Source of the DNA: Bacteroidales bacterium
Lineage (GTDB): Bacteria; Bacteroidota; Bacteroidia; Bacteroidales; UBA4181
Direction: 5' to 3'
Length of the DNA stretch: 58,389 nt
NCBI GenBank assembly: GCA_031551935.1
Contig: JAVBMZ010000076.1
Coordinates: 1-58,389 of the forward strand
The position numbers and the translations under genes are program-made. Shown here piece after piece: positions 26,181 to 57,461 of this stretch. Position 1 is the stretch's first letter. Each line of letters opens with the position of its first letter. The notes below the pieces were generated by a model. The model was given only the letters and a program-made list of their open reading frames with translations. It was not told the origin of the DNA and ran no database searches.

Positions 26181-26237
26181 TTTAGTATTTATTTAGAAAT
26201 TTCCTATATGATTAATCATTGTTTATAGCATCAGTTA

Positions 26238-27383: not shown

Positions 27384-27420
27384 ATTACTCTACTTTATGT
27401 TCACTTAAAAATGATATGGC

Positions 27421-32946: not shown

Positions 32947-32948
32947 AA

Positions 32949-33602: not shown

Positions 33603-33639
33603 TTTTTTGATAAGTATACGTAGTTTGATCAGACATGTT

Positions 33640-35970: not shown

Positions 35971-35974
35971 ATGT

Positions 35975-38324: not shown

Positions 38325-38338
38325 ATCATAATTTTGTT

Positions 38339-40399: not shown

Positions 40400-40405
40400 T
40401 ATAAC

Positions 40406-41170
40406 CTATTTAATAATTTTAATACCAACCAAAGCTTCCATCAAACGTAAAGCTTTACTATAATTATTTTTTTCGATTTCATATGCATTCTGAGTTTTTA
40501 TAAAAGTTTCAGCAGATTGGGTATAATCTTTCAGGGATATTTTATTCCCAGCATAATCCATCTTGGCTTGATCAAACGTCATACTGGCTGACGATAATAG
40601 TTCTATTTGTAGATCTAATGTTTTCTGTTGTGTAAGCAAGTCATAATAAGCAGTAATTACCAATTGTCTTATATTATTTTCTATTATTTCCTTTTGAGCT
40701 CTGGCTTGCTCAATATTAATTTTTGCCTCCTGCCGAGGTAACTTACGATTCAAAACTTCGGAAATAGGCATTCTCATATTAAGACCTACCCCATACCTAA
40801 CCGAGGGTCTCTCCTGATCAGAATAATCAATCAAGACCTGTTCAGTAGAAAAATAAAAATCGCTACCATAACGCGCATCTCCCTGTAAATAAATCCATTT
40901 CATCCAATCTTTATTCAATTGCTTCAATTCGTATTGACTCAATAATATGGTATTATCAGCTATTCTCATTGCTGGAGAATGAATCAATGCCGAATCAATC
41001 AATGCCCCTAATGAAGGCAACATTTTAGAAAAATCGCTGTCTTCATTTGTTGCATCTCCTGATATTGATTGAGCATATATATCCCCTATTAACATTATGG
41101 AAACAAAGAATATGGAAAGTACAATTCGCATGGTGGTATGACAATGATCTTTACTCATTATATTATACAT
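40406..41170 (-). CDS. Half-size TolC-like outer-membrane protein (a single OEP repeat)
   Basis: 254 aa (likely start 41131, MRIVLSIFFVSIMLIGDIYAQS signal). ALIDSALIHSPAMRIADNTILLSQYELKQ ... YGVGLNMRMPI ... IRQLVITAYYDLLTQQKTLDL ... YSKALRLMEALVG follows the helix-strand-strand-helix pattern of one TolC/OEP repeat. Confidence 0.55.
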   Translation of the reverse strand: MYNIMSKDHCHTTMRIVLSIFFVSIMLIGDIYAQSISGDATNEDSDFSKMLPSLGALIDSALIHSPAMRIADNTILLSQYELKQLNKDWMKWIYLQGDARYGSDFYFSTEQVLIDYSDQERPSVRYGVGLNMRMPISEVLNRKLPRQEAKINIEQARAQKEIIENNIRQLVITAYYDLLTQQKTLDLQIELLSSASMTFDQAKMDYAGNKISLKDYTQSAETFIKTQNAYEIEKNNYSKALRLMEALVGIKIIK

Positions 41171-42374: not shown

Positions 42375-42378
42375 AATT

Positions 42379-42786
42379 TTATATCCCTATACGACTCAAA
42401 AAACGTTCGCGAACTTCCAAACGACGTTTGATACGAGCTATTACTTCGCTGGGATTAAATGGCTTAACAACATAATCCTCTGCTCCCAATTCAAAGCATC
42501 TGATTTTATCTTTACTCCATTCCCGCCCCGAAAGAATCATAATTGGAATGTCATCAAAAAAACCGCTACTTTTGATTCTTTCCAAAAATTCGAATCCGTT
42601 TAATTCAGGCATTACTAAATCGCATATAATCAGATCTGGAAAATTACCTGCCTCCAAATAATCGAGCCCCTCCTGTCCATTAGACAAAGAAATTACATCA
42701 AACTCTTGTTTAAGAGTATTTTCAATAATAAATCGAATACTTTTCTCGTCGTCTATAACTAAAATTTTCTTTTTGGCCATAACCAA
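42379..42786 (-). CDS. Stand-alone CheY-like response regulator (receiver only)
   Basis: 135 aa. ILVIDDE, PDLIICDLVMPELNG (acceptor Asp), IMILSG, VVKPF. All canonical receiver residues are present and there is no output domain. Confidence 0.9.
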   Translation of the reverse strand: MVMAKKKILVIDDEKSIRFIIENTLKQEFDVISLSNGQEGLDYLEAGNFPDLIICDLVMPELNGFEFLERIKSSGFFDDIPIMILSGREWSKDKIRCFELGAEDYVVKPFNPSEVIARIKRRLEVRERFLSRIGI

Positions 42787-43192: not shown

Positions 43193-44179
43193 ATGAAAAT
43201 CCTTATAACCGGAGCAAGTGGATTTATTGGTAGTTTTATCGTGAACGAAGGCCTAAATAGAGGTTATGATGTATATGCCGGCATTCGTTGCACTAGTAGT
43301 CTTCAATATTTACCGAAAGATATCAAAACAGTAGAACTTAGCTTTGATAACAAAGATTTGTTGAAATCAGAATTAAGTACTCTTGGTCGGTTTGACTATA
43401 TCATCCATAATGCAGGAGTCACCAAATGCAATCATAAAACGGATTTTGATAAGGTAAATTACGGATATACCCGCAATTTTGTAGAAGCATTAACCGAAAG
43501 CAATGCTGTACCAAAAAAGTTTCTATTTGTCAGCAGTATGGCTGCCTTTGGGCCTGGAGATCCCAAAACATTAGAACCTGTCAAACTTACAGATGTGCCT
43601 AAACCAGACACTCTCTACGGGAAAAGCAAACTCAAAGCTGAAGAATTCATTATGTCACAACTTGGATTTCCTTACATATTTATCAGACCAACAGGAGTTT
43701 ATGGACCAAGGGAAAAGGACTATTTTGTATTTTTGAAGACCATTAATAATCACCTGGAACCAGCTATGGGTACCAAGAAACAGCATCTTACTTTCATTTA
43801 TGTTACCGATTTAGTGAATGTTATGTTTTCAGCATTAGAATCTGAATACTATCAAAAGGCATGGTTCGTTTCCGATGGTAAGGTTTATGATAACCGTGAA
43901 TACGCAAACATCGTAAAAAAACATTTAAACCGAAAAACCCTATATTTACCTGTACCGCTATTTTTGGTTAAAGCTATTTCTTACACTTTAGATTTCATTG
44001 GCGGGTTGTTCGGCATATCTCCTACGCTCAATAAAGATAAATACAAAATTATGCGTGCTACTAATTGGAAATGTGACGTAGAACCTTTACAACAAGAATT
44101 GGGTTTTAAAGCCCTATACGATCTGGATAAAGGGATTGAAGCATGTGTACAATGGTACAAAACAGAACATTGGCTCTAA
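43193..44179 (+). CDS. NAD-dependent epimerase/dehydratase (extended SDR)
   Basis: MKILITGASGFIGSFI (GxxGxxG) at 43193, and YGKSK (YxxxK catalytic motif). The 47 codons upstream in the track ORF look like non-coding leader. Confidence 0.85.
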   Translation: MKILITGASGFIGSFIVNEGLNRGYDVYAGIRCTSSLQYLPKDIKTVELSFDNKDLLKSELSTLGRFDYIIHNAGVTKCNHKTDFDKVNYGYTRNFVEALTESNAVPKKFLFVSSMAAFGPGDPKTLEPVKLTDVPKPDTLYGKSKLKAEEFIMSQLGFPYIFIRPTGVYGPREKDYFVFLKTINNHLEPAMGTKKQHLTFIYVTDLVNVMFSALESEYYQKAWFVSDGKVYDNREYANIVKKHLNRKTLYLPVPLFLVKAISYTLDFIGGLFGISPTLNKDKYKIMRATNWKCDVEPLQQELGFKALYDLDKGIEACVQWYKTEHWL

Positions 44180-44219
44180 AGCTGAAAAATATGATATAGT
44201 TTACTTTCTAAAACTTTTT

Positions 44220-47200
44220 CTATTCCCAGTTGGGTAGTCGATATATTGGACCTGTATCTATTGACGGTACAACCATAATATCCAAAGTTCCTATTTCGCT
44301 GCTGCATCCATTGGCTACCACTGTCACACTGATAGTTCCACTGATAGATCCCGGCATGACACTGATGATACGGCTATCAGGATCTGAGGAGATGATTGTC
44401 CAACCGGCAGGAAGTGCCCAAATATAGGTCGCACCGGGAACATCTGTAGCCATATAAGTTACTTGCTGTCCAACACATACAGATGATGAACCTGTTATAT
44501 TCGGAGTTGCTGGTCTCTGACGTACTTCAATAGGTAATACACTTTCTTTGCCTACCCCACACAACAAGCTGGTTCCTTTGACAGTAATAGCGCCGGATTG
44601 TGCCGTAACTGGCCAATATACTGATATTTTATTCGTATTACTACCGCTTTCGATGCTGGCACCTATAGGAAGCGTCCATTCGTAACCATCAACAGTCATG
44701 GCAGGAATACTGTATTCAATATGTTCCGATGGCACACAGATAATATCAGGGCCACTGATAGCACCTGCATCTTCTATCTTGCTCAATACGGTTACCACTG
44801 ATGGTTCGGAATATGTTTCGTCACAATTACCTGCTTTTATTACTGCACGATACCATACTTCTCCCATATCATTTAAAGTGTTGAGTAAAATATCTTCTGT
44901 GACGAATATGTCTTTCCATGTAAAACCTTTGTCAGTACTACTTTGCCAACGAACAATCTTTCCAAGGTATTCTTTTGCTATCAATTCGAACGTTTTACCC
45001 GGACAGGATGTAAGTGTAGCAGGTGTCACTTTACCTCCGGTAGTCGACGAAATAACATCTACGGAAAGTATTTGAGAATAAGCGTTTGAACACTCACTCA
45101 TGGCTACCTCGGCACGGTATTCCCATTTACCACCTTCGGGAGGCGTCATGGCAATGACATCATTAGTTTCGAGAACATCTGTCCATGTAGTGGTTATGGT
45201 AGTATTACGTTGTTGCCATCTCACCACCTCGCCCTTGTATTCTTCAAGATATAACATGAAACTTTTGCCGGAGCATACATATTCGCTCGCATTGGTGGTA
45301 ACCATGCCGCCTACTGCAACAGGCAGTACGACAATTTCAGCCAATTTGGAATATTCAGGACCGCGATCTCCATTAAAAACTCTGACACGGTATTGCCATC
45401 TCCCCGAGAAACGCGGACTAACTGTGATGATATTTTGGTTTTTCACCGTATTGAAAGTGGTCCAATCGCTAACTACTGTTCCGTCTTCTTCCAGATAACG
45501 GATATCCCAAGCTGCAATACTTGTTTTATAATCCTGAGCCCTCAGTACTACTGTGGCGTCTTGACAGATTGTACTCAACGCAGGAGTAATGGAACCACCT
45601 ACAGGCCTATCACTGGTATCATCTTCCGGTATATTTTTGGATTCAAACGGAATGTCATGGGTAATCGCCCATTTGCCATCGCGATTAAGGGCACGCACAT
45701 ACAGGACATGTTGTCCGAGATCGATACCTGTTAGATCGACATCGAAAGATTTGTCAACATTCCGGTCTGGTGATGGTTCAATCGGCTTGCCTTTACCAAA
45801 GCCAGGATCGGTATCGACAAAATACTCGATGCGGACGATATCTGGGACTCCTTTGATAGCAGGTATTTTGATAAAAGCATTATAGTGTGTGACACTCCAG
45901 CTATTGTCTTCATTAATAGCTCTTATAAATAAGATATGTAATCCGTCGGATAGAGTACTTGTCGGAACAAGAAACTTACGGCTGGCCTTTTCTACTGTCG
46001 GACTGATGGCGATCATATGCCCCATACCAAATCCAGGATCCCTGTCAAAGAAATATTCCAAGGCTTTCACTTTGGATATTTTTGTTTCTTCCATATCCAC
46101 CACCTGTACACTGATGTCCTGAGTGATGCTCCACTTATTGAACTCGTCAAGTGCGCGGACATACAGGGTGTGTGATCCGGAAGTAAGCATATCGGCAGTA
46201 ATTGTGAGACTGGCGGTATAGTCTTTCGCAGATGGGCTAATAGCTACGCTCTTACCTTTCCCAAACCCCGGATCAGTATCAATGAAATATTCTACTGCAA
46301 CAACGTTTGGACGCACCCTGACGGTTGATTTGATGAATGACCGGAATTGCGTAATACTCCAATTTCCCTTGCTATCCTTAGCCCTAATATAAAGTTGATG
46401 TATTCCATCATCGATGGCTGTAAGCGAAATGGCAAAAGTACGAGTGACTTTGTTAGCTACCGTAAATGGAGGTATAGCATGAGCATTACCAAAGCCCGGA
46501 TCATGGTCCATAAACCATTCGATGGCAATGACATCCGATATAGTTGCTATATCAACCTTCATGAAACCAATATTATGAGTAATACTCCATTTTCCGGCAT
46601 CGTCAAGCGCCCTTACGTAGAGTGTATGAAATCCCTCAGATACATTGTCTACATTTACATGAGCACCTGTCAAACTGCCACGAGTCGCTTTTCCAAACCC
46701 AGGATCCTGATCAATAAAGTATTCAATAGCAACTGGGTTAGGTATGATACGTTGTTCTACCTTGATAAATTGATTATATTGCGTCTGACTCCAATGTCCT
46801 AATGTATCCTGAGCACGAACATAGAAAGTATGCAATCCCGGCAAAGTGTTTGCTGGAAGCTGTGCTGTGAATGATTTGATGACCTGTGTTCCCGATATGG
46901 GGATCATGGTTCCTTTCCCAAAACCACGATCTTCATCAAAGAAATATTCAATATAAGCTAAATCGGATGTTAATAATTCACCTACAGAACGTTTGATAAA
47001 AGAGATATCCTGAGTAATACTCCACATACCGGATTTATCCAGTGAACGAATATACAAAGTATGTCCCCCGTCAAGTAGATTCTCGGTTTCCACAACAAAT
47101 GCCGGATTCATGTTATTTCCTGTAAGCGGGATGCTTCGTCCGGATCCGAATCCCGGATCGGTATCCACAAACCATTCCAGACGTGCTAATTCGGTATAAT

Positions 47201-50200
47201 CTCTTGTAGAATGCACTTTTACAAAATTTTGATATTGGGTGATACTCCAAGAGCCCTTATTATCCTTCGCACGGATAAACAAGGTATGCATACCTTCATT
47301 TAATCCAGAAACAGGTATATTGATTTTAGCGGTAACCTGTTTGCCAGGCGTAACCGGAACAACGGTATTCTGGCCAAAACCCTTATCTGTATCGATAAAA
47401 TATTCCAGAGCTTCTACTTCGTTCAATTTAACAACATAGAAAGGCTGATATTGTGTGATACTCCAGGCATCAGTATCATTTTTTGCCCTAACATAGAAGT
47501 TATGCCATCCCTCGTTTAATGCCGATATATCAACAGTGAATGTTTCTATAACAACGCGTTGAGGCGTAGCATAAGTGAATCGCTGTGATGCAGGCACCTT
47601 ACCAAAACCTGGATCATCATTTTCATCATCGCCAATAAACCATTCAATGGCAGCGACATCTGCGATTTGGCGTGTGTCTTCATAACGCACAAAAGTAATG
47701 TCCTGCGTGATACCCCAATGATTCTTATCATCCAAAGCACGGATATACAATGTATGCAAACCATCTGTTAAATTGGCAGCATCAATGAACACAAAAGCAT
47801 GTGTTATTTCTGTTCCTGAAATACCGATTTGCTGACCTGCACCAAAACCGGGATCAGTATCAATGAAATATTCTAATGCGACAAGATTGGCGGGTGTTTG
47901 TTGTGTTGTTTTCAGGAAAGTGAACCGTTGGGAAATACTCCATTTTCCCAGATTATCCCTCACACGCACATACATGGTATGTATACCGTCAGATGTGCCG
48001 GACAAGTCAACAGGCACCGTTTGAGAAATTTGTGATGACGGAGTAACAGCGGTCAGATTTGGTGATTTGCCAAAGCCGGGATCAGTGTCGACAAACCATT
48101 CATAAGCGACAATGTTACGTAATATATTTTCTTCCAGCCTAATAAACGAGAAGTCTTGGGTAATTCCCCAACGTCCGTTTTCGTTCTTTGCACGGATGTA
48201 CAAGGTATGCATTCCTGGCAAAAGTGCAGTGGTATTGATGGGAATATTGACTGTACTTGACGTAACCGTCACAGGATTAGCCAGTCCAAATCCAGGATCG
48301 GAATCAATAAACCATTCCATGGCAACAGTATGGGAGGCATGGTGTTTCGATGCCTTAATGAACTGTTGTATTTGCGTAATACTCCATGAGCCCAAATTAT
48401 CTTTTACTCTCACGTATATGGTATGAATTCCGTCTGCCAATAACGAACTATTGACTTGAACAGTTTTCATTATGCTGGTTCCTACCGTTATAGGGATGTC
48501 GATTCCTGCGCCAAATTCTTTCCATTCATCAATGTAATATTCTGCCTTCACAATATTTTTGACCTTGATTTCCTCAAGTCTTATGAAAGTAACATCTTGT
48601 GTAATACTCCATTCATTGTTTTCATCACGAACGCGCACATATAAGGTATGTAAACCGGGTAATTTATTGGTAAGATCAACATTAAAAGTTTTGTCAATCG
48701 TGGTTGATGGAGTAATGCTTACCTGATTTGCCTTGCCAAAACCCGGATCGGTATCGATAAAATATTCCATACCCAACATTTTGCGATCGCGCATTACTTT
48801 CACTACATTGAAAGTAGCATATTGTGTAATGCTCCATTCATTTTCCATTCCTTTGGCACGAACATAAAGCGTATGTATACCAGGGGCAAATCCGGTTAAA
48901 GGAACATAAGCAGTCACCACAGCATGATCGTCTCCGTATGGAATAGGCATGGCTGTTGCACTTCCAAAGCCTGGATCAGTATCGATGAAGTATTCCAAAG
49001 CGGCTAATCCCGGCTGTTTAGTAATATCTATTACCTCAAAATCAAGCGAATGAGTGATACTCCATTGTCCGTTTCCATTTAATGCGCGAACATACAAGGT
49101 ATGTGTCCCAGAATTCATATGATCGGGTAATGTAACATTGAATAGCCTATTAATTTCTGTTGCTGCGCTAATGGTTACCTTTTTTGCCTTACCAAATCCA
49201 GGATCTATGTCAATGAACCATTCCATACTGACAACCGACGGAATCGGTTTGATTTCTATCCGCATGAATGTAGAACTTTGCGTATGACTCCATTTGCCTG
49301 TATTATCTAACGCCCGTACATACACAGCATGAAGTCCGGACTTCAGGGTATCTACATTGACTGTAATACGTTGCCGTACACTCTGATCGGGTGTTTGAGT
49401 CGCTACATAGTTCGCATTGCCAAATCCGGGATCTTTATCAACAAAATATTCAAAAGCGACGATACTCTTGATTCCTTCAAACCTTGGAATACCTGTATTA
49501 AATATCGAAATATCCTGGGTATGGCTCCATTGTCCAAGACTATTCATCCCTCGCACATACAATGTATGAGCGCCTTCGGGGACTGTATCGAGTTCGATGA
49601 AGAATCTATGATTGACGTCCACACTCCTGTTCGGAATATTGACCATAGTGGCATTGCCAAACCCGGGATCGTCATCCAAGAAATATTCCAAAGCCACAAT
49701 ATCTGGAAATCCGTACAGGCGTGGGTTTTCGACTATTACTAAATTAATATCCTGTGTAATTGTCCAGAATCCCTGATCATCACGAGCACGAATGTACAAT
49801 GTATGAATGCCTGACCAAATGTCATCAGTAGGTATAAACACCTGTTGATAAACATCTTCACCTATGTTGTTGATCGGTATATTTTTACCTTTACCAAATC
49901 CGGGATCGGTATCAATAAAATATTCCAGGTATGAGACTTTTTTACTGACATTCAATGGAATATCAGTGCTAAAAAAACTGATATCTTGTGTAATAGTCCA
50001 TTTACCGTTGGCATCGGCAGCACGCACATACAACGTATGCGGTCCATTATCAATTCCGCTTAAACTAATATCAAAAGATGTACCTGTATTGATTCCCGTT
50101 GGAACAGACAATTGATTTGCTTTTCCAAAACCGGGATCAACATCGATAAACCATTCCATGCGACTGATTTCAGCCAGTTGGTAGTCAGCAGGTATCGCAG

Positions 50201-52850
50201 ATTTGACAAAAGTTCTCCAATGGGTGATACTCCATTTGCCCTTTTCGTCAATAGCACGTACATAAAAGGCATGCAGGCCAGTATTAAGTGATGCAGTACT
50301 GACTGCAAATTTTTTCTGTACATTCTGTCCTTTGGTATCAATGGATATCCGATTAGCTTTGCCTATGCCAGGATCTGAGTCGACAAAATATTCTATTGCC
50401 GTCACATCAGCTATTGAGTAATTTTCTGGTAACTCCGAAACATACAAATCAATCGATTGGGTGATACTCCATTTGCCCAACACGTTTTGCGAACGAATGT
50501 ATAAGGTATGTGATCCGGAAGACACGTCGTCGAGTTGTACCGGAATAAGCTGTTCGCCGGAAGATTGCTGTGACAGGGTTACTATATTTCCAGTCCCAAA
50601 ACCTTTGTCTTTGTCAATAAACCACTCTAAAAGTCGCACATCAGCTTTATCGGGTATCGAGATTTTCAGAAAAGTCTTCATACTGGTCATACTCCATACC
50701 CCATTATTCATACGGGCACGCACATAGAATGTGTGTATTCCCTCTTTGATAGATGCTGATAAAGGCACATTAAATGTCCGACTGACCTTAACGCCAGAAG
50801 TGACATCCACCGCAACAGCCTGTCCAAAACCCGGATCGGTATCGATAAAATATTCTAATGCTACAATTGTTCCTGCTGTTTCTGCGACCATGCTGTAAAA
50901 GGAAACATCTTGTGTAATGCTCCAATCGCCTTTCCGGTTAAGCGACCGTATATACATAGTATGCATCCCCTCGCTATATCCATTATTGATATTGATAACC
51001 AATGTACCATTTGCAGGAATAGGAACTTGCGTGCCTTTTCCAAAACCGGGGTCGCGATCAACGAAATATTCCATTGTAACCGCTTCGCTCAATCCCTCGC
51101 ACACTAAAAAGTGTTGTTGTTGGGTAATGCTCCAATGACCAGAAGCATCCATAGCACGGACATAAAGCGTATACCAACCCTTTTCGGCTCCACCAAGATT
51201 GACGCGGAAAGATTGCGAAATATATTGTCCTTGCACAAATGGGATATTGATAGCTTTTCCAAAGCCAGGATCGGTTTTCCCTGCATCATCCTGTTTTGTG
51301 ATAAAATACTCCAATCTGACAACATCAGGTGTTTCAGGCGCTATCAGACGAAATACCGTCTCATTTTGTGTAACACTCCATTGTCCTTTTGCATTTCGGG
51401 CACGCACATAGAGTGTATGCAAACCTTGTTCTAAATTTTCAAAATCAGCAGTAAATGTCTTGTCTACCTCACTACCCGATATCGCTACTTGATGGGCTTT
51501 ACCAAAACCAGGATCGGTATCTATAAACCATTCAAGCGCAGTCATTGGGTCGCCACCAATGGACATTGCCTTTACAAACATATTGTTCTGTGTGATACTC
51601 CATTTACCGGCTTTATTACGGGCACGCACATAAAGTCTATGCAAACCAGCGCTCAATTGCGAAGTATTGACAGTAAAAGATTGTGTTGACCGTTGTCCCG
51701 GTGCATTCAAAGGTACAGGAATAGCGTTTCCAAAACCCGGATCAGTATCGACAAAATATTCTACATAATTAACATCAAATGCCGTCTGGGCATCGATTTT
51801 AATGAACTCGAGCGTCTGTACAATTCCCCATCGACCCATACTGTTTTTCGAACGTATATACAGCGTATGTACCCCACTCCCTAATGTATCAACATTAATT
51901 TGAAAAGAGGAAGTAATATTCTGGGCTGGAACGTTAATATTGACTGGTGCAGCCTTACCAAATCCGGGATCGGTGTCAATAAAATATTCTAATTGTTCGA
52001 TGTTTGAACCCGTTGAGATATCTGCCTTAACAAAAGTATTACTTTGTGTAATACTCCACTTGCCATCGGAATTGCGCGCACGCACATAGAGTCGATGTAC
52101 GCCTGAACCTATTTGTGAGATATCAACTGTGAATGGTTGTACCACATGGTCGCCCGGCGAAGTAACGACTATATTATTTGCTTTTCCAAAGCCCGGATCC
52201 ACATCAATAAAATATTCCAGGCCTGTGATGTCTGGCAACACTTCAACAAAAAACTGTTGGTAAGATCTTGTTTGGGTAATGCTCCATCGTCCATCCCTAT
52301 CCATTGAACGGATATAAAGCGTATGAGTGCCTGCAGCAGATGGGTCTACACTAATATTGACCAATTGATCAATATTTGCCCCTTGTGTTATCTCAATTTT
52401 ACTCGCCTGACCTATGCCAGGATCGGTATCGATAAAATATTCGAGTCGGACAACACTGGGTACTACATGTATTTTGGTACGGATAAAGGAACGCGCCTGA
52501 GTGATACTCCATACAGGAGTCAGATCGGCTCCATAAGACATGGCCCGTACATACACATGATGAATCCCTTCGGATAAATGAGCTGTAGAAACATTATTAA
52601 CGGTAATAGATATGTCACCTCCCGGGGTAAAGCCTGTTATAATAGGTGTTGCTTTACCTACACCCGGGTCGTTATCAATAAAGTATTCTAAACGCCGAAT
52701 TTGATTTTGGGCAGAAAGTGGTAAAGAAATGAATAAAGAACAATAAATAATAAAGCATGAGAGGCGATATATCATTCTGCCAAGGTTTTTTTGCCTTGAT
52801 ATGGGCTTTTCGATGTGCCATTTGTGATATATATGCCGAATTAAATTCAT
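44220..52850 (-). CDS. Giant secreted repeat protein (2876 aa): 31 tandem ~76-aa units of unassigned family, then 3 Cys/Trp-containing ~90-aa domains, then 2 PKD-like domains
   Basis: Uninterrupted 8.6-kb ORF. The probable start is 52775 (MIYRLSCFIIYCSLFISLPLSAQNQ signal peptide). For repeat details see the repeat feature at 45603..52700. The C-terminus (...DIMVVPSIDTGPIYRLPNWE) lacks type-A and type-B T9SS sorting motifs. Confidence 0.9.
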   Translation of the reverse strand: MNLIRHIYHKWHIEKPISRQKNLGRMIYRLSCFIIYCSLFISLPLSAQNQIRRLEYFIDNDPGVGKATPIITGFTPGGDISITVNNVSTAHLSEGIHHVYVRAMSYGADLTPVWSITQARSFIRTKIHVVPSVVRLEYFIDTDPGIGQASKIEITQGANIDQLVNISVDPSAAGTHTLYIRSMDRDGRWSITQTRSYQQFFVEVLPDITGLEYFIDVDPGFGKANNIVVTSPGDHVVQPFTVDISQIGSGVHRLYVRARNSDGKWSITQSNTFVKADISTGSNIEQLEYFIDTDPGFGKAAPVNINVPAQNITSSFQINVDTLGSGVHTLYIRSKNSMGRWGIVQTLEFIKIDAQTAFDVNYVEYFVDTDPGFGNAIPVPLNAPGQRSTQSFTVNTSQLSAGLHRLYVRARNKAGKWSITQNNMFVKAMSIGGDPMTALEWFIDTDPGFGKAHQVAISGSEVDKTFTADFENLEQGLHTLYVRARNAKGQWSVTQNETVFRLIAPETPDVVRLEYFITKQDDAGKTDPGFGKAINIPFVQGQYISQSFRVNLGGAEKGWYTLYVRAMDASGHWSITQQQHFLVCEGLSEAVTMEYFVDRDPGFGKGTQVPIPANGTLVININNGYSEGMHTMYIRSLNRKGDWSITQDVSFYSMVAETAGTIVALEYFIDTDPGFGQAVAVDVTSGVKVSRTFNVPLSASIKEGIHTFYVRARMNNGVWSMTSMKTFLKISIPDKADVRLLEWFIDKDKGFGTGNIVTLSQQSSGEQLIPVQLDDVSSGSHTLYIRSQNVLGKWSITQSIDLYVSELPENYSIADVTAIEYFVDSDPGIGKANRISIDTKGQNVQKKFAVSTASLNTGLHAFYVRAIDEKGKWSITHWRTFVKSAIPADYQLAEISRMEWFIDVDPGFGKANQLSVPTGINTGTSFDISLSGIDNGPHTLYVRAADANGKWTITQDISFFSTDIPLNVSKKVSYLEYFIDTDPGFGKGKNIPINNIGEDVYQQVFIPTDDIWSGIHTLYIRARDDQGFWTITQDINLVIVENPRLYGFPDIVALEYFLDDDPGFGNATMVNIPNRSVDVNHRFFIELDTVPEGAHTLYVRGMNSLGQWSHTQDISIFNTGIPRFEGIKSIVAFEYFVDKDPGFGNANYVATQTPDQSVRQRITVNVDTLKSGLHAVYVRALDNTGKWSHTQSSTFMRIEIKPIPSVVSMEWFIDIDPGFGKAKKVTISAATEINRLFNVTLPDHMNSGTHTLYVRALNGNGQWSITHSLDFEVIDITKQPGLAALEYFIDTDPGFGSATAMPIPYGDDHAVVTAYVPLTGFAPGIHTLYVRAKGMENEWSITQYATFNVVKVMRDRKMLGMEYFIDTDPGFGKANQVSITPSTTIDKTFNVDLTNKLPGLHTLYVRVRDENNEWSITQDVTFIRLEEIKVKNIVKAEYYIDEWKEFGAGIDIPITVGTSIMKTVQVNSSLLADGIHTIYVRVKDNLGSWSITQIQQFIKASKHHASHTVAMEWFIDSDPGFGLANPVTVTSSTVNIPINTTALLPGMHTLYIRAKNENGRWGITQDFSFIRLEENILRNIVAYEWFVDTDPGFGKSPNLTAVTPSSQISQTVPVDLSGTSDGIHTMYVRVRDNLGKWSISQRFTFLKTTQQTPANLVALEYFIDTDPGFGAGQQIGISGTEITHAFVFIDAANLTDGLHTLYIRALDDKNHWGITQDITFVRYEDTRQIADVAAIEWFIGDDENDDPGFGKVPASQRFTYATPQRVVIETFTVDISALNEGWHNFYVRAKNDTDAWSITQYQPFYVVKLNEVEALEYFIDTDKGFGQNTVVPVTPGKQVTAKINIPVSGLNEGMHTLFIRAKDNKGSWSITQYQNFVKVHSTRDYTELARLEWFVDTDPGFGSGRSIPLTGNNMNPAFVVETENLLDGGHTLYIRSLDKSGMWSITQDISFIKRSVGELLTSDLAYIEYFFDEDRGFGKGTMIPISGTQVIKSFTAQLPANTLPGLHTFYVRAQDTLGHWSQTQYNQFIKVEQRIIPNPVAIEYFIDQDPGFGKATRGSLTGAHVNVDNVSEGFHTLYVRALDDAGKWSITHNIGFMKVDIATISDVIAIEWFMDHDPGFGNAHAIPPFTVANKVTRTFAISLTAIDDGIHQLYIRAKDSKGNWSITQFRSFIKSTVRVRPNVVAVEYFIDTDPGFGKGKSVAISPSAKDYTASLTITADMLTSGSHTLYVRALDEFNKWSITQDISVQVVDMEETKISKVKALEYFFDRDPGFGMGHMIAISPTVEKASRKFLVPTSTLSDGLHILFIRAINEDNSWSVTHYNAFIKIPAIKGVPDIVRIEYFVDTDPGFGKGKPIEPSPDRNVDKSFDVDLTGIDLGQHVLYVRALNRDGKWAITHDIPFESKNIPEDDTSDRPVGGSITPALSTICQDATVVLRAQDYKTSIAAWDIRYLEEDGTVVSDWTTFNTVKNQNIITVSPRFSGRWQYRVRVFNGDRGPEYSKLAEIVVLPVAVGGMVTTNASEYVCSGKSFMLYLEEYKGEVVRWQQRNTTITTTWTDVLETNDVIAMTPPEGGKWEYRAEVAMSECSNAYSQILSVDVISSTTGGKVTPATLTSCPGKTFELIAKEYLGKIVRWQSSTDKGFTWKDIFVTEDILLNTLNDMGEVWYRAVIKAGNCDETYSEPSVVTVLSKIEDAGAISGPDIICVPSEHIEYSIPAMTVDGYEWTLPIGASIESGSNTNKISVYWPVTAQSGAITVKGTSLLCGVGKESVLPIEVRQRPATPNITGSSSVCVGQQVTYMATDVPGATYIWALPAGWTIISSDPDSRIISVMPGSISGTISVTVVANGCSSEIGTLDIMVVPSIDTGPIYRLPNWE
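45603..52700 (-). repeat. 31 head-to-tail coding repeats (68-82 aa, ~230 nt)
   Basis: Every unit starts [LMIVFYA]E[YW][FY][IVLFM]DxDPGFGxA and ends GxHTLY[VI]RAxDxxGxWS[IV]TQxxxF. The DNA block ccaaaNccNggatcNgtatcNatNaaNtaYtc recurs at ~230-nt spacing with differences at synonymous sites. Confidence 0.9.
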
Positions 52851-52870
52851 CCTGTTCGTTATCCTATCCT

Positions 52871-52907
52871 CCTAACAGGTTTGTCAAACCTGTTAGGTTT
52901 ATTTTTT
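52871..52907. repeat. CCTRACAGG-family hairpin (12-bp perfect stem) plus T-run on the + strand, in the leader of the giant gene
   Basis: cctaacaggttt (52871-52882), gtc, aaacctgttagg (52886-52897), then tttatttttt. It lies 21 nt upstream of ATG 52850 and 96 nt upstream of the probable start at 52775. Confidence 0.7.
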
Positions 52908-53353
52908 ATTCTTTCATTGATGAAAATCTATTTCATCAAATTTTATCATCTGAAAATCCTATTGGAGTTGTTTTAAAACTTAACAAGTATTGAGACTCAT
53001 TCAAAAACCTTTGAGTCATATATTCCATTTTGTTAATGCATCATTTCTTCGTGTACTAACCATTTTTTGTCATACTATTCGAACAAATTTCCAACATCAT
53101 CAAAATAATGAATAACAACGTCCCTTTTCAGGTTTCTGGGAAATAATGGAAGAATATGATGAAAAGATAAGTCGAAGATGATAAAATCCATGTCTAATGG
53201 AATTCAAATGAATATATACCACTAATTTGCATCAGATAACTAACATCTACTATCTGATTGATTCATTTATATTCCCAACATCCTATCAGAACTTATCATT
53301 AATCATAACTTTGTTTTCTAAGCTATGACTCTGTTTTCGATTTGGTATTTTAA

Positions 53354-53381
53354 CCTGACAGGTCTTTGAAGACCTGTCAGG
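53354..53381 (-). terminator. CCTRACAGG-family hairpin, 11-bp perfect stem, 8 nt after the stop of 53389..54993
   Basis: cctgacaggtc (53354-53364), tttgaa, gacctgtcagg (53371-53381). There is only a weak U-tract on the minus strand (ttaaaata). Confidence 0.5.
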
Positions 53382-53388
53382 AAATGTA

Positions 53389-54993
53389 TCAATGTGATTT
53401 TACCTTTACGCGTACTTCAAATCCAGTTGATGGAACTTCATTACCACCCGGAATAGTGATTTCCCATACGGCCGGAATGGTGTACAAACCTGAGAAGATA
53501 TAAGGAGCCAAACCACCATACATACCACGTTGCTTGGCCGTTTCAGCGGCAGCAGGGGGTGAACCGGGGTTCAAAGCAAACGAATTATCTACATACCAAG
53601 TTCCTGGAGAAACAAACCAGTTGGTGTTGGTGCTTTCATACACATCGCCGGTGCCATTGGCAGAAGCCATTCCACCATAAAGCCTTGCCTGATTTTGCCA
53701 AAGAGTACTGTTCAAAATAATATTGTCTTTGGTATCGTTTGCTACAGTTGCCCGTGTAGCTGTAGGGCCAAATTGTGTCGGCAAACCATAACAAGCTTCT
53801 GCATGTGTCACTGTGCCATGAGTCCATCCCGGATAAAACAGATTGTTGGATAAACGGGCTGCTTTAGCCGCTATATTAAAAGCATAATAAAAAGTATTGT
53901 TTTGAAGGGTTGGATTCACTACCGGCCATGTAAAACGATTATAGTATGTTTCTCTATCTTCACTCCATGTATGCGCAGAAAGATACTCTGTAGCCGGCCA
54001 TGGTGCCGCCGATTTACCCTTTCCCCTCAAATCAATTACCAAGTATGAAGTGGCTTGAACAGGACCATTGAGAGATACAGCGCTGGTGGTTGTATTGTTG
54101 TTCCCATGAGTTCCATTATAAGCATATCCTATACAAACACCATCATTCCGGAAAAAACTATTGGAAATAATCAGATTAATGACAGGCTTATCGCTTACAC
54201 GACAGGCAATCATACCTGGGTTGAAAAAACACTTAGTAACCGTAATATTTTTCAACGTATCGGTATTATATAATTCTAAGAAATATAATTTGTTGTGGCT
54301 TATGATCACATTGTTGGCATTCACCATTACTTTATATTTAGTACCTTGATTCCAACATCTTGCCTGAGCAGTTGCCAGATTACTGACGCAACCGTTAATG
54401 TTTCCGAAATTTCCGGCACTGTATCCCGATGTTGTAGCTTCATCATAAAAAGGCCATACACCGGAATATACATATTTATTAAAAATATCTGTCGCCACAA
54501 AACGCCCCACAGGTCCATAAGCTGAATTACCTGCAAAAATGTTCACAGATGTCGCATTGCTATTAGCACCATCATCGATCATGTTGGATGGCATTTGCTC
54601 TAATCCGGCAATAACTGTTCCGGCTGCTTCCTTGGCAATATAAAGACTATAAAATCTGGCAGGGTATTTATTGTGCTGTGTTTCGCTATTTTTATCTAGT
54701 AAATAACCAGGGCCAATAATCACTAGCCGTTTCTTTACTGTATCCATCGATACTCCAGATACGGAATTATCCTTACCATAAGGTCCTTTTGAAGATCCCT
54801 CGATGTGAAGCGTGTCACCTGCATTTACTTTGCTTGACCTCAAGGCCAAAGTCAGTGCAGATGTCGAACCGACATCCCAAAAATCACAACTTTTATTGGG
54901 GTTATTGTTTACGCGCCAAATCTTTGCTGAGGCGTCCTGAGTAACCGCTAACCCGGCCACCACTATGATGAGAAATAAACAAATCTTTTTCAT
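53389..54993 (-). CDS. Secreted right-handed parallel beta-helix protein, paralogue 1 (534 aa)
   Basis: Signal peptide ...TQDASA|KIWRVNNN. Asn-ladder-type repeats ISNSFFRND, LQNNTFYYAF, LSNNLFY. C-terminal block QRGMYGGLAPYIFSGLYTIPAVWEI...GFEVRVKVKSH shared with the next two genes. Confidence 0.75.
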   Translation of the reverse strand: MKKICLFLIIVVAGLAVTQDASAKIWRVNNNPNKSCDFWDVGSTSALTLALRSSKVNAGDTLHIEGSSKGPYGKDNSVSGVSMDTVKKRLVIIGPGYLLDKNSETQHNKYPARFYSLYIAKEAAGTVIAGLEQMPSNMIDDGANSNATSVNIFAGNSAYGPVGRFVATDIFNKYVYSGVWPFYDEATTSGYSAGNFGNINGCVSNLATAQARCWNQGTKYKVMVNANNVIISHNKLYFLELYNTDTLKNITVTKCFFNPGMIACRVSDKPVINLIISNSFFRNDGVCIGYAYNGTHGNNNTTTSAVSLNGPVQATSYLVIDLRGKGKSAAPWPATEYLSAHTWSEDRETYYNRFTWPVVNPTLQNNTFYYAFNIAAKAARLSNNLFYPGWTHGTVTHAEACYGLPTQFGPTATRATVANDTKDNIILNSTLWQNQARLYGGMASANGTGDVYESTNTNWFVSPGTWYVDNSFALNPGSPPAAAETAKQRGMYGGLAPYIFSGLYTIPAVWEITIPGGNEVPSTGFEVRVKVKSH

Positions 54994-55049
54994 TGTATAT
55001 TGATTATGGTATATTATTCTATGTGTACTATATTATTGTTCTTGATATT

Positions 55050-56186
55050 TTAATGCGCCATTACTTTTACAGTCACTTCAAAGCCATCGGCAGAGACTTC
55101 TGTCGGCATTACAATTTCATATACGGCTGGTATAGAAGTAAGCCCCGATTTACCATAAGGCGCTAATCCACCATACATACCGTATTCTTTAATGGCAGCA
55201 GCTTCGGTTGGTATATTGCGTAAAGGCGAAGGACTTCCTGTTTTAGAAGTAAAATAAGCATCATACAACTCATTGTTGCCCGAACCTGTGAACCAAGCTA
55301 ATGGATCGGTTGCTGCCGATACCGTATTGGCTTCACCGTTTTCAACAACTCCCGTCCATGCATAATTGGTAATGTTTTGTGTACATGGTTTAGAGGGAGC
55401 ATCCACTGTAATAGCAGATGCAACGTTACTGGCTGCACGGTAAAATGCATTGCGGGTAATATCTGCCCCTGTGTTCATAGTCGTAATGGCAAAATTTTTG
55501 TAAAAAGTATTGTTGCTGATACGCGATTTTACATTTACGTTCAAATCAATAACTGTATTGCCAGTTCCGTCATTTCTGAAAAAATTGTTCATAATGTTCA
55601 GGTTGGAAACAATAGAAGCGCCGGTAGTACGTATGACGCCTGGTCCAAACCATGATTTTTTAATATCAATATCACTCAAGGATTTGTCATTGTTGATCTC
55701 TACAACAAAAAGCCGGCTATTGATCACTTTGACATAGCTGGCATTGATGATCACGCGAGGACCTGTCCACAATGCTGCAGAAGCTGATGTCATGGCAACA
55801 GTGAAACTCGAAGTACTGGTGTTTGCCTGAGCATGCACATCATGTTCCACACCTGCTATTACCACACTATCAGCCGTAATCGTAATGGTACCCAGTTTTG
55901 CCGGTTGCTTGATGTATTGTGTTTCCAAGTTATTCGACAAATAATATCCCGGACCGAAAATATGCAGGGCTTTTTTATTGATAGTTACACTATTAAGATA
56001 TGGTATGGAAGACCCCTCTATATGTATGGTATCGCCTGCCCCCACCCGATTGTCATCGATAACGGCTTGCGTGAAATCTGTAAAATCGCAAGCTACTCCT
56101 GCGTTATTGTTTACCCGCCATATTTTAGCGGAGGCATTATATCCTCCCACAAGCAGGCTTACAAAAATGATCAGATACTTCTTCAT
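55050..56186 (-). CDS. Secreted right-handed parallel beta-helix protein, paralogue 2 (378 aa)
   Basis: Signal ...GYNASA|KIWRVNNN, GDTIHIEGS, IFGPGYYL, IMNNFFRNDGTGN, ISNNTFYKNF, ITRNAFY. C-terminal EYGMYGGLAPYGKSGLTSIPAVYEI...GFEVTVKVMAH. Confidence 0.75.
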   Translation of the reverse strand: MKKYLIIFVSLLVGGYNASAKIWRVNNNAGVACDFTDFTQAVIDDNRVGAGDTIHIEGSSIPYLNSVTINKKALHIFGPGYYLSNNLETQYIKQPAKLGTITITADSVVIAGVEHDVHAQANTSTSSFTVAMTSASAALWTGPRVIINASYVKVINSRLFVVEINNDKSLSDIDIKKSWFGPGVIRTTGASIVSNLNIMNNFFRNDGTGNTVIDLNVNVKSRISNNTFYKNFAITTMNTGADITRNAFYRAASNVASAITVDAPSKPCTQNITNYAWTGVVENGEANTVSAATDPLAWFTGSGNNELYDAYFTSKTGSPSPLRNIPTEAAAIKEYGMYGGLAPYGKSGLTSIPAVYEIVMPTEVSADGFEVTVKVMAH

Positions 56187-56230
56187 ATGATTGTTGATTT
56201 TTAAATTTTACATTTTTATGAATTTGTGCC

Positions 56231-56263
56231 AGACCTAACAGGAAAACAATACCTGTCAGGTCT
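56231..56263. repeat. CCTRACAGG-family hairpin plus T-run on the + strand, between paralogues 3 and 2
   Basis: agacctaacagg (56231-56242), 9-nt loop, cctgtcaggtct (56252-56263), then ttttatttattt. The single A/C mismatch on the + strand becomes a G-U pair on the minus-strand RNA. Confidence 0.65.
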
Positions 56264-56281
56264 TTTTATTTATTTATCGTT

Positions 56282-57394
56282 TTAATGAACACTCGCTTGA
56301 ATGACCATATCAAATTGATTACCTACTTCACCATCCATCAGGATGCTATATACTGAAGGTATTGCATACATTCCTGAACGAATATACGGTGTGCGTCCTC
56401 CATACATGCCGCGTTGTTTTTCGTCGCTGGTGAGATCACTGTTATCTCTCAATGGACAAGTGGCGCCCATGTGCGCCGAACGATAATATACATCTATTTT
56501 TTCGTCGTTACCGCTACAGGAAAACCAGTTCTCAAGCGTCGCAAACTGCACATCATTTACACCTCCATAGGTCGTAATTTGTGCATCAAATGCGATATTG
56601 GAAACATTACTATTATATGTATTGGTAGAATAATAATTCAATGCCGGTGTTACTGTGGAGTAAAAAGCATTGCTTTCAATATTTGTATTGTACACAGTTA
56701 CTTTAAAATTTTTATAAAAGGTATTGTTCCCAAGTCGCCAGTCAGCGCAAGCCGTCACTGATGTATTAGCAATGACATCATAAGGAGTCTGATCATTGCG
56801 GAAAAAACAATTGCTGATGCTTAAACTTGTAATAGGATTTGCTGTGTTTTTGGCCACATACACCACACCTGGGTTAAAAAAACATTTCTGAATGGAAATA
56901 TTGATCAACGACTTGTTGTTATTGTTCAGTTCAACAAAAAATAACCGGCAATTAATAATTTTAATCGTATCGGTCTGAATAACAATCTTGTTTCCCGCAT
57001 AAGCAGAGGTGGAAACAATAGAAAAACCGCTGGTCGAACCCATATTGTATTGCTCAATCCCTGCAATCACAGAACCTTGACTACCAGTATCAAAAATAAT
57101 GTTACCGTTCATCTTAGCCGGTTCCTTGTTGTATTGCGTTTTTTCCGTAGATGTCAAAAAATATCCCGGACCAATAATCACCACCTTACGATCTATGGTC
57201 ACATTACCAGTGTATGGACTCACCGAACCTTCAATATGAATGGTATCAACCGCCGTTTTGGAAGCCGCGCCTACCGCATCGTTCAGTGAGGTATAAACAT
57301 TTAATAAACCTGTATTATTGTTCACCCTGAGAATTTTAGCCTGTAAAGAAGGCGTCAAAATCATCAGAAATATCCATAAATATCCTTGTTTCAT
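56282..57394 (-). CDS. Secreted right-handed parallel beta-helix protein, paralogue 3 (370 aa)
   Basis: Signal ...TPSLQA|KILRVNNN, DTIHIEGS, IIGPGYFL, ISNCFFRNDQ, LGNNTFYKNF, IESNAFY. C-terminal QRGMYGGRTPYIRSGMYAIPSVYSI...FDMVIQASVH. Confidence 0.75.
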   Translation of the reverse strand: MKQGYLWIFLMILTPSLQAKILRVNNNTGLLNVYTSLNDAVGAASKTAVDTIHIEGSVSPYTGNVTIDRKVVIIGPGYFLTSTEKTQYNKEPAKMNGNIIFDTGSQGSVIAGIEQYNMGSTSGFSIVSTSAYAGNKIVIQTDTIKIINCRLFFVELNNNNKSLINISIQKCFFNPGVVYVAKNTANPITSLSISNCFFRNDQTPYDVIANTSVTACADWRLGNNTFYKNFKVTVYNTNIESNAFYSTVTPALNYYSTNTYNSNVSNIAFDAQITTYGGVNDVQFATLENWFSCSGNDEKIDVYYRSAHMGATCPLRDNSDLTSDEKQRGMYGGRTPYIRSGMYAIPSVYSILMDGEVGNQFDMVIQASVH

Positions 57395-57420: not shown

Positions 57421-57461
57421 CCTTCTTGTACGTATAAACGACAAGAAGGTTTCGCTTTTTA
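57421..57461. other. 9-bp hairpin plus T-run on the + strand, 27 nt upstream of the paralogue-3 start codon
   Basis: ccttcttgt (57421-57429), 11-nt loop, acaagaagg (57441-57449), then tttcgcttttta. Confidence 0.5.

Follow-up and report, generated by a model that had tools for sequence, protein, structure and literature searches.

The closest described systems to the locus studied here include type IX secretion system (T9SS) cargo proteins, gliding adhesins and a gene cluster of Vibrio cholerae. T9SS cargo of type A carries a Sec signal, functional domains and a C-terminal sorting domain (CTD; TIGR04183/PF18962), and the PorU sortase attaches it to the surface. Gliding adhesins of the SprB type have the accessory genes sprC, sprD and sprF, and they combine a type-B CTD with an adjacent PorP/SprF-like gene. 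In the rbm cluster of V. cholerae, which lies inside the vps genes for exopolysaccharide (EPS), RbmA is a tandem fibronectin type III (FnIII) scaffold and RbmB is a beta-helix polysaccharide lyase. In this study, we analysed a contig of 58,389 nucleotides from a Bacteroidales bacterium (JAVBMZ010000076.1 of assembly GCA_031551935.1; the whole contig is referred to as the window), whose minus strand holds four consecutive open reading frames (ORFs): three genes for beta-helix paralogues, P3, P2 and P1 in this order, followed by the gene of a giant secreted repeat protein. An earlier reading of the sequence (the original prediction) had described these four genes as one surface module, and had joined them with a neighbouring EPS locus and its divergent epimerase gene into a cell-surface island of approximately 32 kb (25.4-57.4 kb), whose proteins were thought to act on the adjacent EPS. 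Our results indicated that the link between the beta-helix genes and the repeat gene is very strong, while the link to the EPS locus was unsupported. We consider it highly probable that a beta-helix gene and a repeat gene form a conserved module that is unrelated to the EPS locus.

When one genome of each species was scanned, 317 relatives were found, and the best 80 of their loci were retrieved together with flanks of 10 kb. Synteny was scored on these best 80 of the 317 genome matches and on additional related loci using stop-to-stop ORFs, and all ORFs of the loci were searched with two local hidden Markov models (HMMs), one for the beta-helix family and one for the 31 repeats of the window's giant protein. 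In 80 of 80 beta-helix modules with enough downstream DNA, the next gene downstream on the same strand was a repeat gene. It was found within 1.3 kb in 79 of these modules and at 1.4 kb in the last (L005; loci are cited by their numbers in our analysis), following an insertion of palindromic repeats, and the median gap between the ORF boundaries was 28 nt; overlaps of the two genes, or spacings of a few nucleotides, are frequent. Two loci that had appeared to be exceptions in a regex count (L051 and L090) both proved to have repeat genes when recounted with the HMM. The reverse test was also positive: three of three unrelated repeat proteins (L091, L094 and L099) have a gene of the beta-helix family directly upstream, and these upstream genes matched the family HMM at 1e-52 to 1e-100 in hmmsearch. 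The repeat proteins of L091 and L094 consist of three repeats and a T9SS CTD, and that of L099 (6001-7122) has four repeats and a dockerin, with an ATGA overlap between its start codon and the stop codon of the beta-helix gene. Thus, the check proposed with the original prediction, namely whether the beta-helix triplet co-occurs with EYFIDTDPGFG-repeat genes across genomes, was positive in both directions.

The pairing was observed in Chitinophagaceae and Cytophagales (Spirosoma, Siphonobacter, Pontibacter, Lunatibacter), as well as in Sphingobacteriaceae, Flavobacteriales, Saprospiraceae, Draconibacterium and several Bacteroidales. It reaches the Fidelibacterota, and Marinimicrobia and KSB1 are among the homologues by name. 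The habitats of the family are those of soil, aquatic, gut and insect-associated Bacteroidota. Two complete cassettes were found adjacent to each other in two loci, in convergent orientation in L016 (9929-20946) and in tandem in L086 (7657-11949), which suggests that the pair duplicates as a unit. In addition, a LuxR-type two-component system (a HisKA_3 kinase with a Response_reg/GerE regulator) lies beside the cassette in approximately 23 of 86 loci, mainly in Chitinophagaceae; examples are L007, L008, L009, L049, L057, L070, L072, L082 and L086, and none was found beside the window's clade. In the lineages concerned, this system could be a regulator dedicated to the cassette, and its frequency led us to reject it as an obligatory core neighbour.

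To place the four genes of the window within this distribution, we compared their order with that in close relatives. Among close relatives, which come from metagenome-assembled genomes (MAGs) of Bacteroidales, L002, L004 and L005 have the same order of two short genes, one long beta-helix gene and then a giant repeat gene, and in L011 and L012 the triplet is present in the same order up to the contig end. In L012, the second gene of the triplet is separated from the third by an ORF of approximately 1.5 kb (4515-6050) that by eye resembles an AAA-ATPase-like/PD-(D/E)XK family frequent in Bacteroidales. At each of the three positions, the genes of the triplet are reciprocal best matches across six genomes, and the best matches of P3 elsewhere are always first-position genes. 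Single-copy members of the family in other phyla are closest to the second position (P2). Two or three beta-helix genes were found only in close Bacteroidales relatives, and so were arrays of 23-36 repeats; triplets pair with 23-36 repeats, whereas single genes pair with 1-7. Judged from these sequence comparisons, the triplication is old, ordered and maintained, and the position-wise orthology over six genomes would indicate three distinct roles and not redundancy. Our best explanation is that the four genes represent a lineage-specific expansion of a two-gene cassette that is widespread in Bacteroidota and related phyla of the Fibrobacteres-Chlorobi-Bacteroidetes (FCB) group; taken as a whole, together with the docking mechanism proposed below, this explanation has, in our judgement, close to an even chance of being correct, an estimate that is governed by the mechanism.

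The three beta-helix proteins are pairwise 40-44% identical and align end to end, indicating that they are true paralogues. P1 is the long form, whose extra length comes from insertions in the alignment, and its third-position orthologues in relatives have 461-484 aa. None of the three proteins matched any family in Pfam-A or NCBIfam, and one distant member of the family weakly matched PF13229. An AlphaFold2 model of P2, built with 80 homologues, showed a right-handed parallel beta-helix with a mean predicted local distance difference test score (pLDDT) of 88.5 and a predicted template modelling score (pTM) of 0.89. When this model was searched with Foldseek, the PDB returned pectin methylesterase, PL6 lyases, RbmB and inulin lyases (E approximately 5e-3, TM 0.3-0.39), and BFVD returned phage tailspike-like proteins; the top matches in both databases were all beta-helix proteins, either enzymes or tailspikes. 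The model and its matches support the assignment of the family to the right-handed (pectate-lyase-like) superfamily by fold, and they give substance to the label "beta-helix", which had been a guess in the original prediction. These matches are only generic for the fold and indicate no specific enzyme family. Profile searches against all PDB sequences revealed no relative of the beta-helix family or of the repeat family. With these searches nil and the Foldseek matches in PDB and BFVD generic, assignment of the beta-helix proteins to a specific enzyme family was rejected.

P2 has approximately 146 detectable homologues in a word-indexed database. A profile search of 1.84 billion representatives found 2,202 clusters at 50% identity with E<=1e-30 and 4,495 with E<=1e-10, and all 150 of the top matches listed span essentially the whole family profile. 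We aligned 152 diverse members, including 138 of the 150 top-scoring representatives; their lengths range from 313 to 536 aa, with a median of 338. Residues conserved throughout these members lie in the N-terminal cap (W23, D52, T53, S59, Y63, K72, N86 and Q90) and in the C-terminal tail, from D309 to P353, so that the conserved polar residues D52, Y63, K72, N86, Q90, D309 and D334 are all in the terminal regions. In the central coils, Asn ladders are the only conserved positions, and at the sequence level no conserved acid/base cluster was found there across the 152 members. Likewise, membership in lyase, GH28 or CE8 families was not indicated at this level, as there were neither family-specific catalytic residues on the central coils, such as a Ca2+-binding acidic cluster with a Lys/Arg base or an Asp triad, nor a CAZy-type family match in Pfam, NCBIfam or the PDB sequences. 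The absence of an acid/base cluster would fit a binding or structural role better than the groove of a classic lyase or hydrolase.

The signal peptides of the paralogues show, by inspection, a cleavage pattern of AxA before K. The C-terminal tail is conserved in the family as PYxLSGxPxIPxIY...KVKSNN and is contiguous with the helix in the AlphaFold2 model. Short CTDs have been described in Prevotella (PMC11969387), which prompted the idea that this tail might be a cryptic T9SS CTD; C-terminal fragments of 47-51 aa from six diverse members gave no CTD match in Pfam even at E<=10, and the idea was rejected. No T9SS sorting domain of type A, type B or the "short" kind was found on the beta-helix proteins with Pfam and NCBIfam or, for the short CTDs, in a comparison by eye. 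We also rejected the possibility that the tail is a degenerate EYF repeat that acts by strand donation, as the repeat HMM, run with filters off against the 152 members, found nothing below E=0.48.

The partner proteins outside the window's clade contain 1-7 repeats (mode 4), usually at the N terminus. The repeats are followed by a papain-type protease with a lectin, Big_2 arrays, LamG, cadherin-like or PKD modules, or by none, and sequence reading alone suggests M43-like metalloproteases and CARDB-like arrays as two further modules. The only element common to the partners is the repeat module itself, and minimal partners are 332-aa proteins that consist of three repeats and a CTD. A type-A T9SS sorting domain ends 46 of the 63 complete partners. 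For their detection, 14 partner C-termini, of which Pfam annotation or scan confirmed 10 as Por_Secre_tail, served to build a local CTD HMM, and a subset of the 46 was confirmed with Pfam and TIGR04183. The remaining partners have dockerin-like ends or, as in the window's giant, no recognisable signal. Dockerin-like ends were observed in some partners of Bacteroidales and Bacteroidota, namely those of L099 (Pfam Dockerin_1), L016 and L078; because the beta-helix neighbour is kept where such an end takes the place of the CTD, the anchor module appears to be interchangeable. A further set of partners, of approximately 1900-2300 aa, was noted in Spirosoma, Siphonobacter and Chitinophagaceae (L023, L031, L034, L038, L050, L062, L063 and L067); these have approximately five repeats and, by sequence reading, long CARDB-like arrays, followed by ...GILRPGAxG... 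without a recognisable sorting domain.

In the window's giant protein, the likely true start is Met26, at position 52775, because the N-termini of the homologues open directly with the signal peptide. This start gives the signal peptide MIYRLSCFIIYCSLFISLPLSA, cleaved before Q (LSA before Q, by inspection), and lengthens the gap between P1 and the giant gene to 613 nt. The repeat units have 68-82 aa (approximately 76 aa), with the consensus xEYFiDxDPGFGka...GxHtlYvRaxdxxgxWSITQ, and their mean pairwise identity of 38%, with a maximum of 54%, suggests that the repeats are old. An AlphaFold2 model of repeats 3-5 (pLDDT 91.7) showed a string of small immunoglobulin (Ig)/FnIII-like beta-sandwiches, in keeping with the fibre that the original prediction had seen in this protein. 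Foldseek matched the model to CbhA Fn3 modules, RbmA, the adhesin extender 6xi3 and SiiE, all of which are generic matches. Searches of Pfam and NCBIfam gave only weak or sub-threshold matches of the repeats to Y_Y_Y, Big_13, OmpL47 and GbpA_D3, and neither database has a model for the EYF repeat. On the strength of the two models, the terms "beta-helix triplet" and "repeat fibre" are justified as statements about the fold; neither family has a characterised relative.

The C-terminal region of the giant contains PKD_6 in two stretches (Pfam 6.7e-27) and reads ...GPIYRLPNWE at its end, which lies 40 nt short of the convergent gene for a short-chain dehydrogenase/reductase (SDR). Sec signals were recognised by inspection on all four proteins of the module, as had been claimed, and searches with Pfam, NCBIfam and CTD models agreed with the earlier statement that no T9SS, lipoprotein or LPXTG anchor is present. 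In particular, the giant had no Por_Secre_tail or CHU_C match in Pfam and NCBIfam and no match to the local CTD HMM; it also lacks a lipobox and an LPXTG motif, and no RTX or haemolysin-type matches were found in Pfam. Sequons for Bacteroidota O-glycosylation (D[ST][AILVMT]) are depleted in this protein, with 4 observed against 12.3 +/- 3.3 in shuffles, and the hypothesis that the giant is a target of glycan modification was rejected on this ground.

From the linkage observed across genomes and the modelled folds, we infer how the pair might work. A beta-helix protein of approximately 340 aa, which would be exported by Sec and has no sorting domain itself, is encoded just upstream of a secreted EYFxDxDPGxG repeat protein, and the latter carries the export or anchor signal, usually a type-A T9SS CTD, sometimes a dockerin-like end and sometimes none, and may bear any of a wide range of effector domains. 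The beta-helix protein would dock on the repeat stalk, and the pair would constitute a surface or extracellular appendage. In such an appendage, the Ig-like repeats may serve both as a spacer and as a platform for docking, with Ca2+ at the DxDPG loops probably lending them stiffness, by analogy, and the beta-helix subunits may act as glycan-binding or glycan-cleaving heads, as tailspikes do on a fibre. In the window's clade, three non-redundant beta-helix heads and approximately 30 repeats would then give a long multivalent fibre. Docking is suggested because the linkage is tight, the repeat module is the sole constant of the partners, the export signal is present only on the partner, and the conserved residues lie at the ends of the helix. 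We regard docking of the beta-helix protein on the repeat stalk, as a glycan-binding or glycan-cleaving appendage, as possible, with a chance somewhat below even.

A more specific form of this proposal is that the EYFxDxDPGxG repeat is a cohesin-like docking module for its cognate beta-helix, and that the beta-helix protein, which has no CTD, rides through the T9SS on its CTD-bearing partner. The pair would then represent a hetero-oligomeric, "piggy-back" class of T9SS cargo, of a kind not described so far. According to the same scenario, the termite-type Bacteroidales clade would have grown a fibre of 30 sites with three kinds of beta-helix head. We consider this form doubtful. Several points also weigh against docking in general. 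First, tight linkage would be equally expected from a shared substrate or from a relation of chaperone and client. Second, our literature search found no description of a T9SS that carries a CTD-less partner, or of beta-helix partners. Third, the giant has no recognisable sorting domain, which leaves its exit from the periplasm unexplained. Fourth, the gap of 538 nt, in which hairpins lie, contrasts with the close coupling in other modules. Fifth, the Foldseek matches of the beta-helix model are enzymes, so a catalytic role is possible, although the scores are generic. Finally, the role of Ca2+ at the DxDPG loop is drawn by analogy.

The alternative that survives best is that the two partners form no stable complex. 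The beta-helix protein would be a secreted lyase, hydrolase or esterase, the repeats would be carbohydrate-binding or spacer domains of proteins that act on the same extracellular glycan, and the linkage would result from co-expression. The beta-helix fold is commonest in carbohydrate-active enzymes, which agrees with the nature of the best Foldseek matches (pectin methylesterase, PL6, RbmB and inulin lyases), with the lectin-like or LamG domains on some partners and with the weak GbpA_D3 and OmpL47 matches of the repeats. However, the central coils of the 152 members have no acid/base cluster of a catalytic type, and the family has no CAZy-type match among Pfam, NCBIfam and the PDB sequences. 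Furthermore, the strict order in 80 of 80 modules, together with the overlapping start and stop codons, exceeds what is usual for co-regulation; the minimal partners consist of repeats and an anchor alone, and the export signal of the beta-helix protein is Sec alone. Weighing both sides, we regard co-expressed partners without a complex as rather unlikely.

Another scenario would make the beta-helix protein a dedicated periplasmic maturation factor, which would remain in the periplasm and fold, protect or modify the EYF repeats ahead of their export, in a way that recalls the service of NosD or of phage tail-fibre chaperones to a single client. The features that suggest docking are also in line with such a factor: the family has a Sec signal and never a T9SS or other sorting domain, its gene lies upstream of and is tightly coupled to that of the client, and the clients have nothing constant in common but the repeat module. 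However, Ig-like domains usually fold unaided, three anciently diverged paralogues would be hard to explain for a single client, and the depletion of O-glycosylation sequons in the giant argues against a modification directed by glycans. No precedent was found in the literature searched. This scenario therefore seems to us improbable.

The EPS locus itself is genuine. Family matches identified a polysaccharide operon of the Wzx/Wzy type, with genes for a receiver protein, a receiver-fused initiating sugar transferase (Bac_transf), OEP-like, Wzz and Wzy proteins, GT2/GT4 glycosyltransferases, an acetyltransferase, a Wzx-type flippase, an ATP-grasp protein, a methyltransferase and others. The presence of this operon and of the SDR epimerase gene beside the module, as originally described, was therefore substantiated; the SDR gene (Pfam Epimerase, 1.9e-28) is divergent from the EPS operon and convergent with the giant gene, and its true start is placed at 43193 because its orthologues have 328 aa. 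The question was whether adjacency reflects a shared function. For the 15 EPS proteins and the SDR protein, tblastn (1e-6) against the 86 related loci and their 10-kb flanks found no homologue beyond generic matches of receiver domains; in L002, L004 and L005, the closest carriers of the module, the comparison extended as far as the giant gene. Conversely, SDR orthologues are 75-84% identical, and the arrangement of EPS operon and SDR gene is kept in three relatives (L096-L098) that lack the beta-helix/repeat module there. On the far side of the SDR gene, these relatives have housekeeping genes: one case shows VIT1, antiporter/NADH-dehydrogenase subunits and DnaG, and the other shows miaA together with a radical-SAM gene. 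In one MAG (GCA_031551645.1), the contig that carries the triplet (L011) is not the one that carries the EPS-SDR block (L096). The guanine-cytosine content is 30-35% across the EPS-SDR block versus 40-42% across the module, with a break at approximately 44 kb. Upstream of the module in L002 and L004, we found SprB/cadherin giants, an FGE-sulfatase-like gene and a PQQ propeller gene, and no EPS genes. A metagenome scan with the C-terminal 460 aa of the giant found only one irrelevant contig of 2.3 kb.

These comparisons led us to reject the EPS linkage as a conserved association, and the "32-kb island" is not supported as one island; it appears to consist of two unrelated units that abut by chance. 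The island would be analogous to the V. cholerae vps-rbm region, with an EPS matrix that the beta-helix proteins bind, trim or modify and a fibre formed by the repeat protein. It could draw on the complete Wzx/Wzy locus that adjoins the module in the window, on RbmB and RbmA among the Foldseek matches of the beta-helix and the repeats, respectively, and on the predicted export of all products, and a very recent local association is possible, as the downstream flank of the closest relatives lies outside the comparison. Against these points stand the absence of EPS homologues in 86 of 86 related loci, the EPS-SDR blocks without the module, the discontinuity in base composition and the convergence of the giant and SDR genes, which makes a shared transcript impossible; in addition, the matches to RbmA and RbmB reflect only the fold in general (TM 0.2-0.37). 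As a conserved system, the EPS-island model is thus largely refuted, and we judge it highly improbable. A separate observation concerns the head of the EPS operon, where a stand-alone receiver precedes a Response_reg/Bac_transf fusion; together with the divergent SDR gene, this head is conserved in several Bacteroidales MAGs (L096, L097 and L098), and it may represent an EPS initiation step controlled by a phospho-relay.

Table 1. Positions of the module, its parts and neighbouring features in the window
Feature	Position	Strand	Evidence or property
P3, first beta-helix paralogue, 370 aa	56282..57394	-	ORF; family HMM E=2e-98
P2, second beta-helix paralogue, 378 aa	55050..56186	-	ORF; AlphaFold2 model; homologue search
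P1, third beta-helix paralogue, 534 aa	53389..54993	-	Alignment; family HMM E=1e-92
Giant secreted repeat protein, 2876 aa as called	44220..52850	-	ORF; homologous giants behind triplet in L002, L004 and L005
31 tandem EYFxDxDPGxG...HTLYVRA..G.WSITQ repeats of the giant, residues 54-2417	45600..52691	-	Repeat parsing
C-terminal non-repeat region of the giant: three Cys-containing Ig-like domains of ~90 aa and two PKD_6	44223..45599	-	Pfam
Palindromic hairpin GACCUGACAGG...CCUGUUAGGUC, 19 nt past P3 stop	56231..56263	-	-19.9 kcal/mol, z -4.65
Perfect 13-bp palindromic hairpin, 8 nt past P1 stop	53354..53381	-	-21.6 kcal/mol, z -6.2
Perfect 13-bp palindromic hairpin, 20 nt before annotated start of the giant	52871..52897	-	-16.5 kcal/mol, z -5.6
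9-bp stem-loop unrelated to the palindromes, ~26 nt upstream of P3 start	57421..57449	-	-16.5 kcal/mol, z -4.6
Bacteroidota -7 motif TAnnTTTG (TACATTTG), 399 nt upstream of P3	57786..57793	-	Sole exact match in module intergenic DNA
EPS locus	25404..42786		Family matches
Head of EPS operon: receiver and Response_reg/Bac_transf fusion	41163..42786
SDR epimerase gene	43193..44179		Pfam
SprB-repeat/HYR giant, 2865 aa, with CHU_C (type-B) T9SS signal	8574..17171	-
PorP/SprF gene	7610..8593	-	1.7e-58
DUF3108-like partial ORF at contig edge	57970..58359	-

The coordinates of the ORFs (Table 1) bear out the gaps originally reported between the four co-oriented genes, which are 95 nt between P3 and P2, 56 nt between P2 and P1, and 538 nt between P1 and the giant gene. 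Related hairpins between the genes had also been reported, and we recovered three stable stems, with no hairpin in the 56-nt gap between P2 and P1. The three stems share the core CCTGACAGG / CCTGTCAGG (CCTRWCAGGT palindromes), and compensatory A/T changes (CCTAACAGG / CCTGTTAGG) preserve the stem of the hairpin before the giant gene. The CCTRWCAGGT motif occurs 7 times in the window against 0.17 expected, and all occurrences lie in intergenic DNA of the module. On the coding strand, no U-tract comes after any of the three hairpins. The hairpin before the giant gene has a T-run on the plus strand only (CCTAACAGGTTTGTCAAACCTGTTAGG TTTATTTTTT; 52871-52907); if it is an intrinsic terminator, it would stop antisense transcription and not the transcript of the module. 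Searches of the intergenic DNA with Rfam gave only sub-threshold noise, and scans of the same DNA for sigma-70 promoters and terminators remained at background level.

The same palindrome core was found in the intergenic DNA of the module in L004, L005 (26 matches, in composite arrays) and L011; it is missing from L002 and, beyond chance singles, from distant loci. The hairpins are short imperfect palindromes that are intergenic, multi-copy and lineage-specific and have stem-preserving substitutions, as is characteristic of repetitive extragenic palindromic (REP) elements. We interpret them as lineage-specific REP-like elements, which probably punctuate or stabilise a polycistronic transcript; the conserved module does not include them. 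In L005, the stretch that separates the giant gene from the third beta-helix gene (4700-6470) contains arrays of the CCTGACAGG palindrome and a separate tandem array whose units have approximately 21 nt (AAACCTCATGAAGACTTGGGT-like). Among these repeats lies an ORF of 240 aa (5452-6174) with the pattern YHIYNRG...HFHIL, which recalls REP-associated Y1 transposases; it had no Pfam match, and its identity as such a transposase (RAYT) was not confirmed.

Upstream of P3, the unrelated stem-loop is possibly a structure of the 5' untranslated region. The exact TAnnTTTG motif was absent from the 95-, 56- and 538-nt gaps, with a background of 0.65 per kb, so that the single copy upstream of P3 is a candidate promoter and is weakly consistent with one operon. 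The contig stops approximately 1 kb upstream of P3, with a partial ORF at its edge. At some distance from the module, the PorP/SprF gene comes after the SprB-repeat giant with its CHU_C signal, which is the classic pair of cargo and PorP/SprF; this pair (7610-17171) indicates the presence of a T9SS in the organism.

Should the two proteins prove to form a complex, the cassette would represent a new modular way to build surface appendages and could be the first example of hitch-hiking on the T9SS, and a function would be provided for thousands of "hypothetical" gene pairs. Many of these pairs belong to cultivable genera, such as Spirosoma, Pontibacter, Siphonobacter, Paraflavitalea and Segetibacter. 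A lesson for annotation is that adjacency to an EPS locus is here no evidence of shared function.

Nothing relevant to the motif strings or to T9SS partners of this kind was found in literature searches, and neither Pfam, NCBIfam, the PDB nor the literature searched describes an obligatory, phylum-wide pairing between one particular repeat module and a beta-helix protein that lacks a CTD. The kinds of protein already known are T9SS cargo and giant Ig-repeat adhesins. Most of the partners (the 46 of 63 with a type-A CTD) are of the same kind as T9SS type-A cargo, and the host of the window encodes T9SS components. The window's giant shares with such cargo the Sec signal peptide, the T9SS-encoding host and the signal cleavage before Gln that is typical of Bacteroidota; it differs in having no CTD. 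Unlike the cassette studied here, the described classes of T9SS cargo have no obligatory upstream partner with a beta-helix and without a CTD. SprB-type adhesins resemble the module in that they, too, are giant, repeat-rich surface proteins of Bacteroidota whose genes stand in a fixed order with accessory genes dedicated to them. In those systems, however, the accessory is a downstream PorP/SprF protein of the outer membrane, whereas here it is an upstream soluble beta-helix protein, and the 2876-aa giant has neither SprB repeats nor CHU_C.

The rbm/vps system of V. cholerae pairs the same two exported fold classes, and in the window an EPS locus adjoins them as well. The Foldseek matches to RbmA and RbmB go no further than the fold (E 1e-3 to 4e-2, TM 0.18-0.37, 10-14% identity), and no sequence-profile match in the PDB indicated homology to either protein. 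Moreover, the EPS linkage is not conserved here, and the conserved unit is a protein pair that mostly uses the T9SS. Ig-repeat adhesins stiffened by Ca2+ (SiiE and RTX adhesins of the LapA/MpIBP type) are similar to the giant, which likewise has approximately 30 diverged Ig-like extender domains and an acidic DxD-type loop at the start of each domain, with 6xi3 and SiiE among its Foldseek matches. It differs from RTX adhesins of the type I secretion system (T1SS) in that it has no RTX repeats, no T1SS signal and no adjacent genes for ATP-binding cassette (ABC) or membrane fusion (MFP) proteins; the sole OEP gene lies inside the EPS operon, and the giant is flanked instead by the beta-helix paralogues and the SDR gene. 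Finally, the module has neither the context of a phage nor sequence homology to tailspike assemblies, and its chains are cellular proteins with Sec signals. With the phage fibre and its beta-helix tailspike or depolymerase, to which the generic tailspike matches point, it would share the same proposed principle, that of glycan-recognising heads on an extended fibre.

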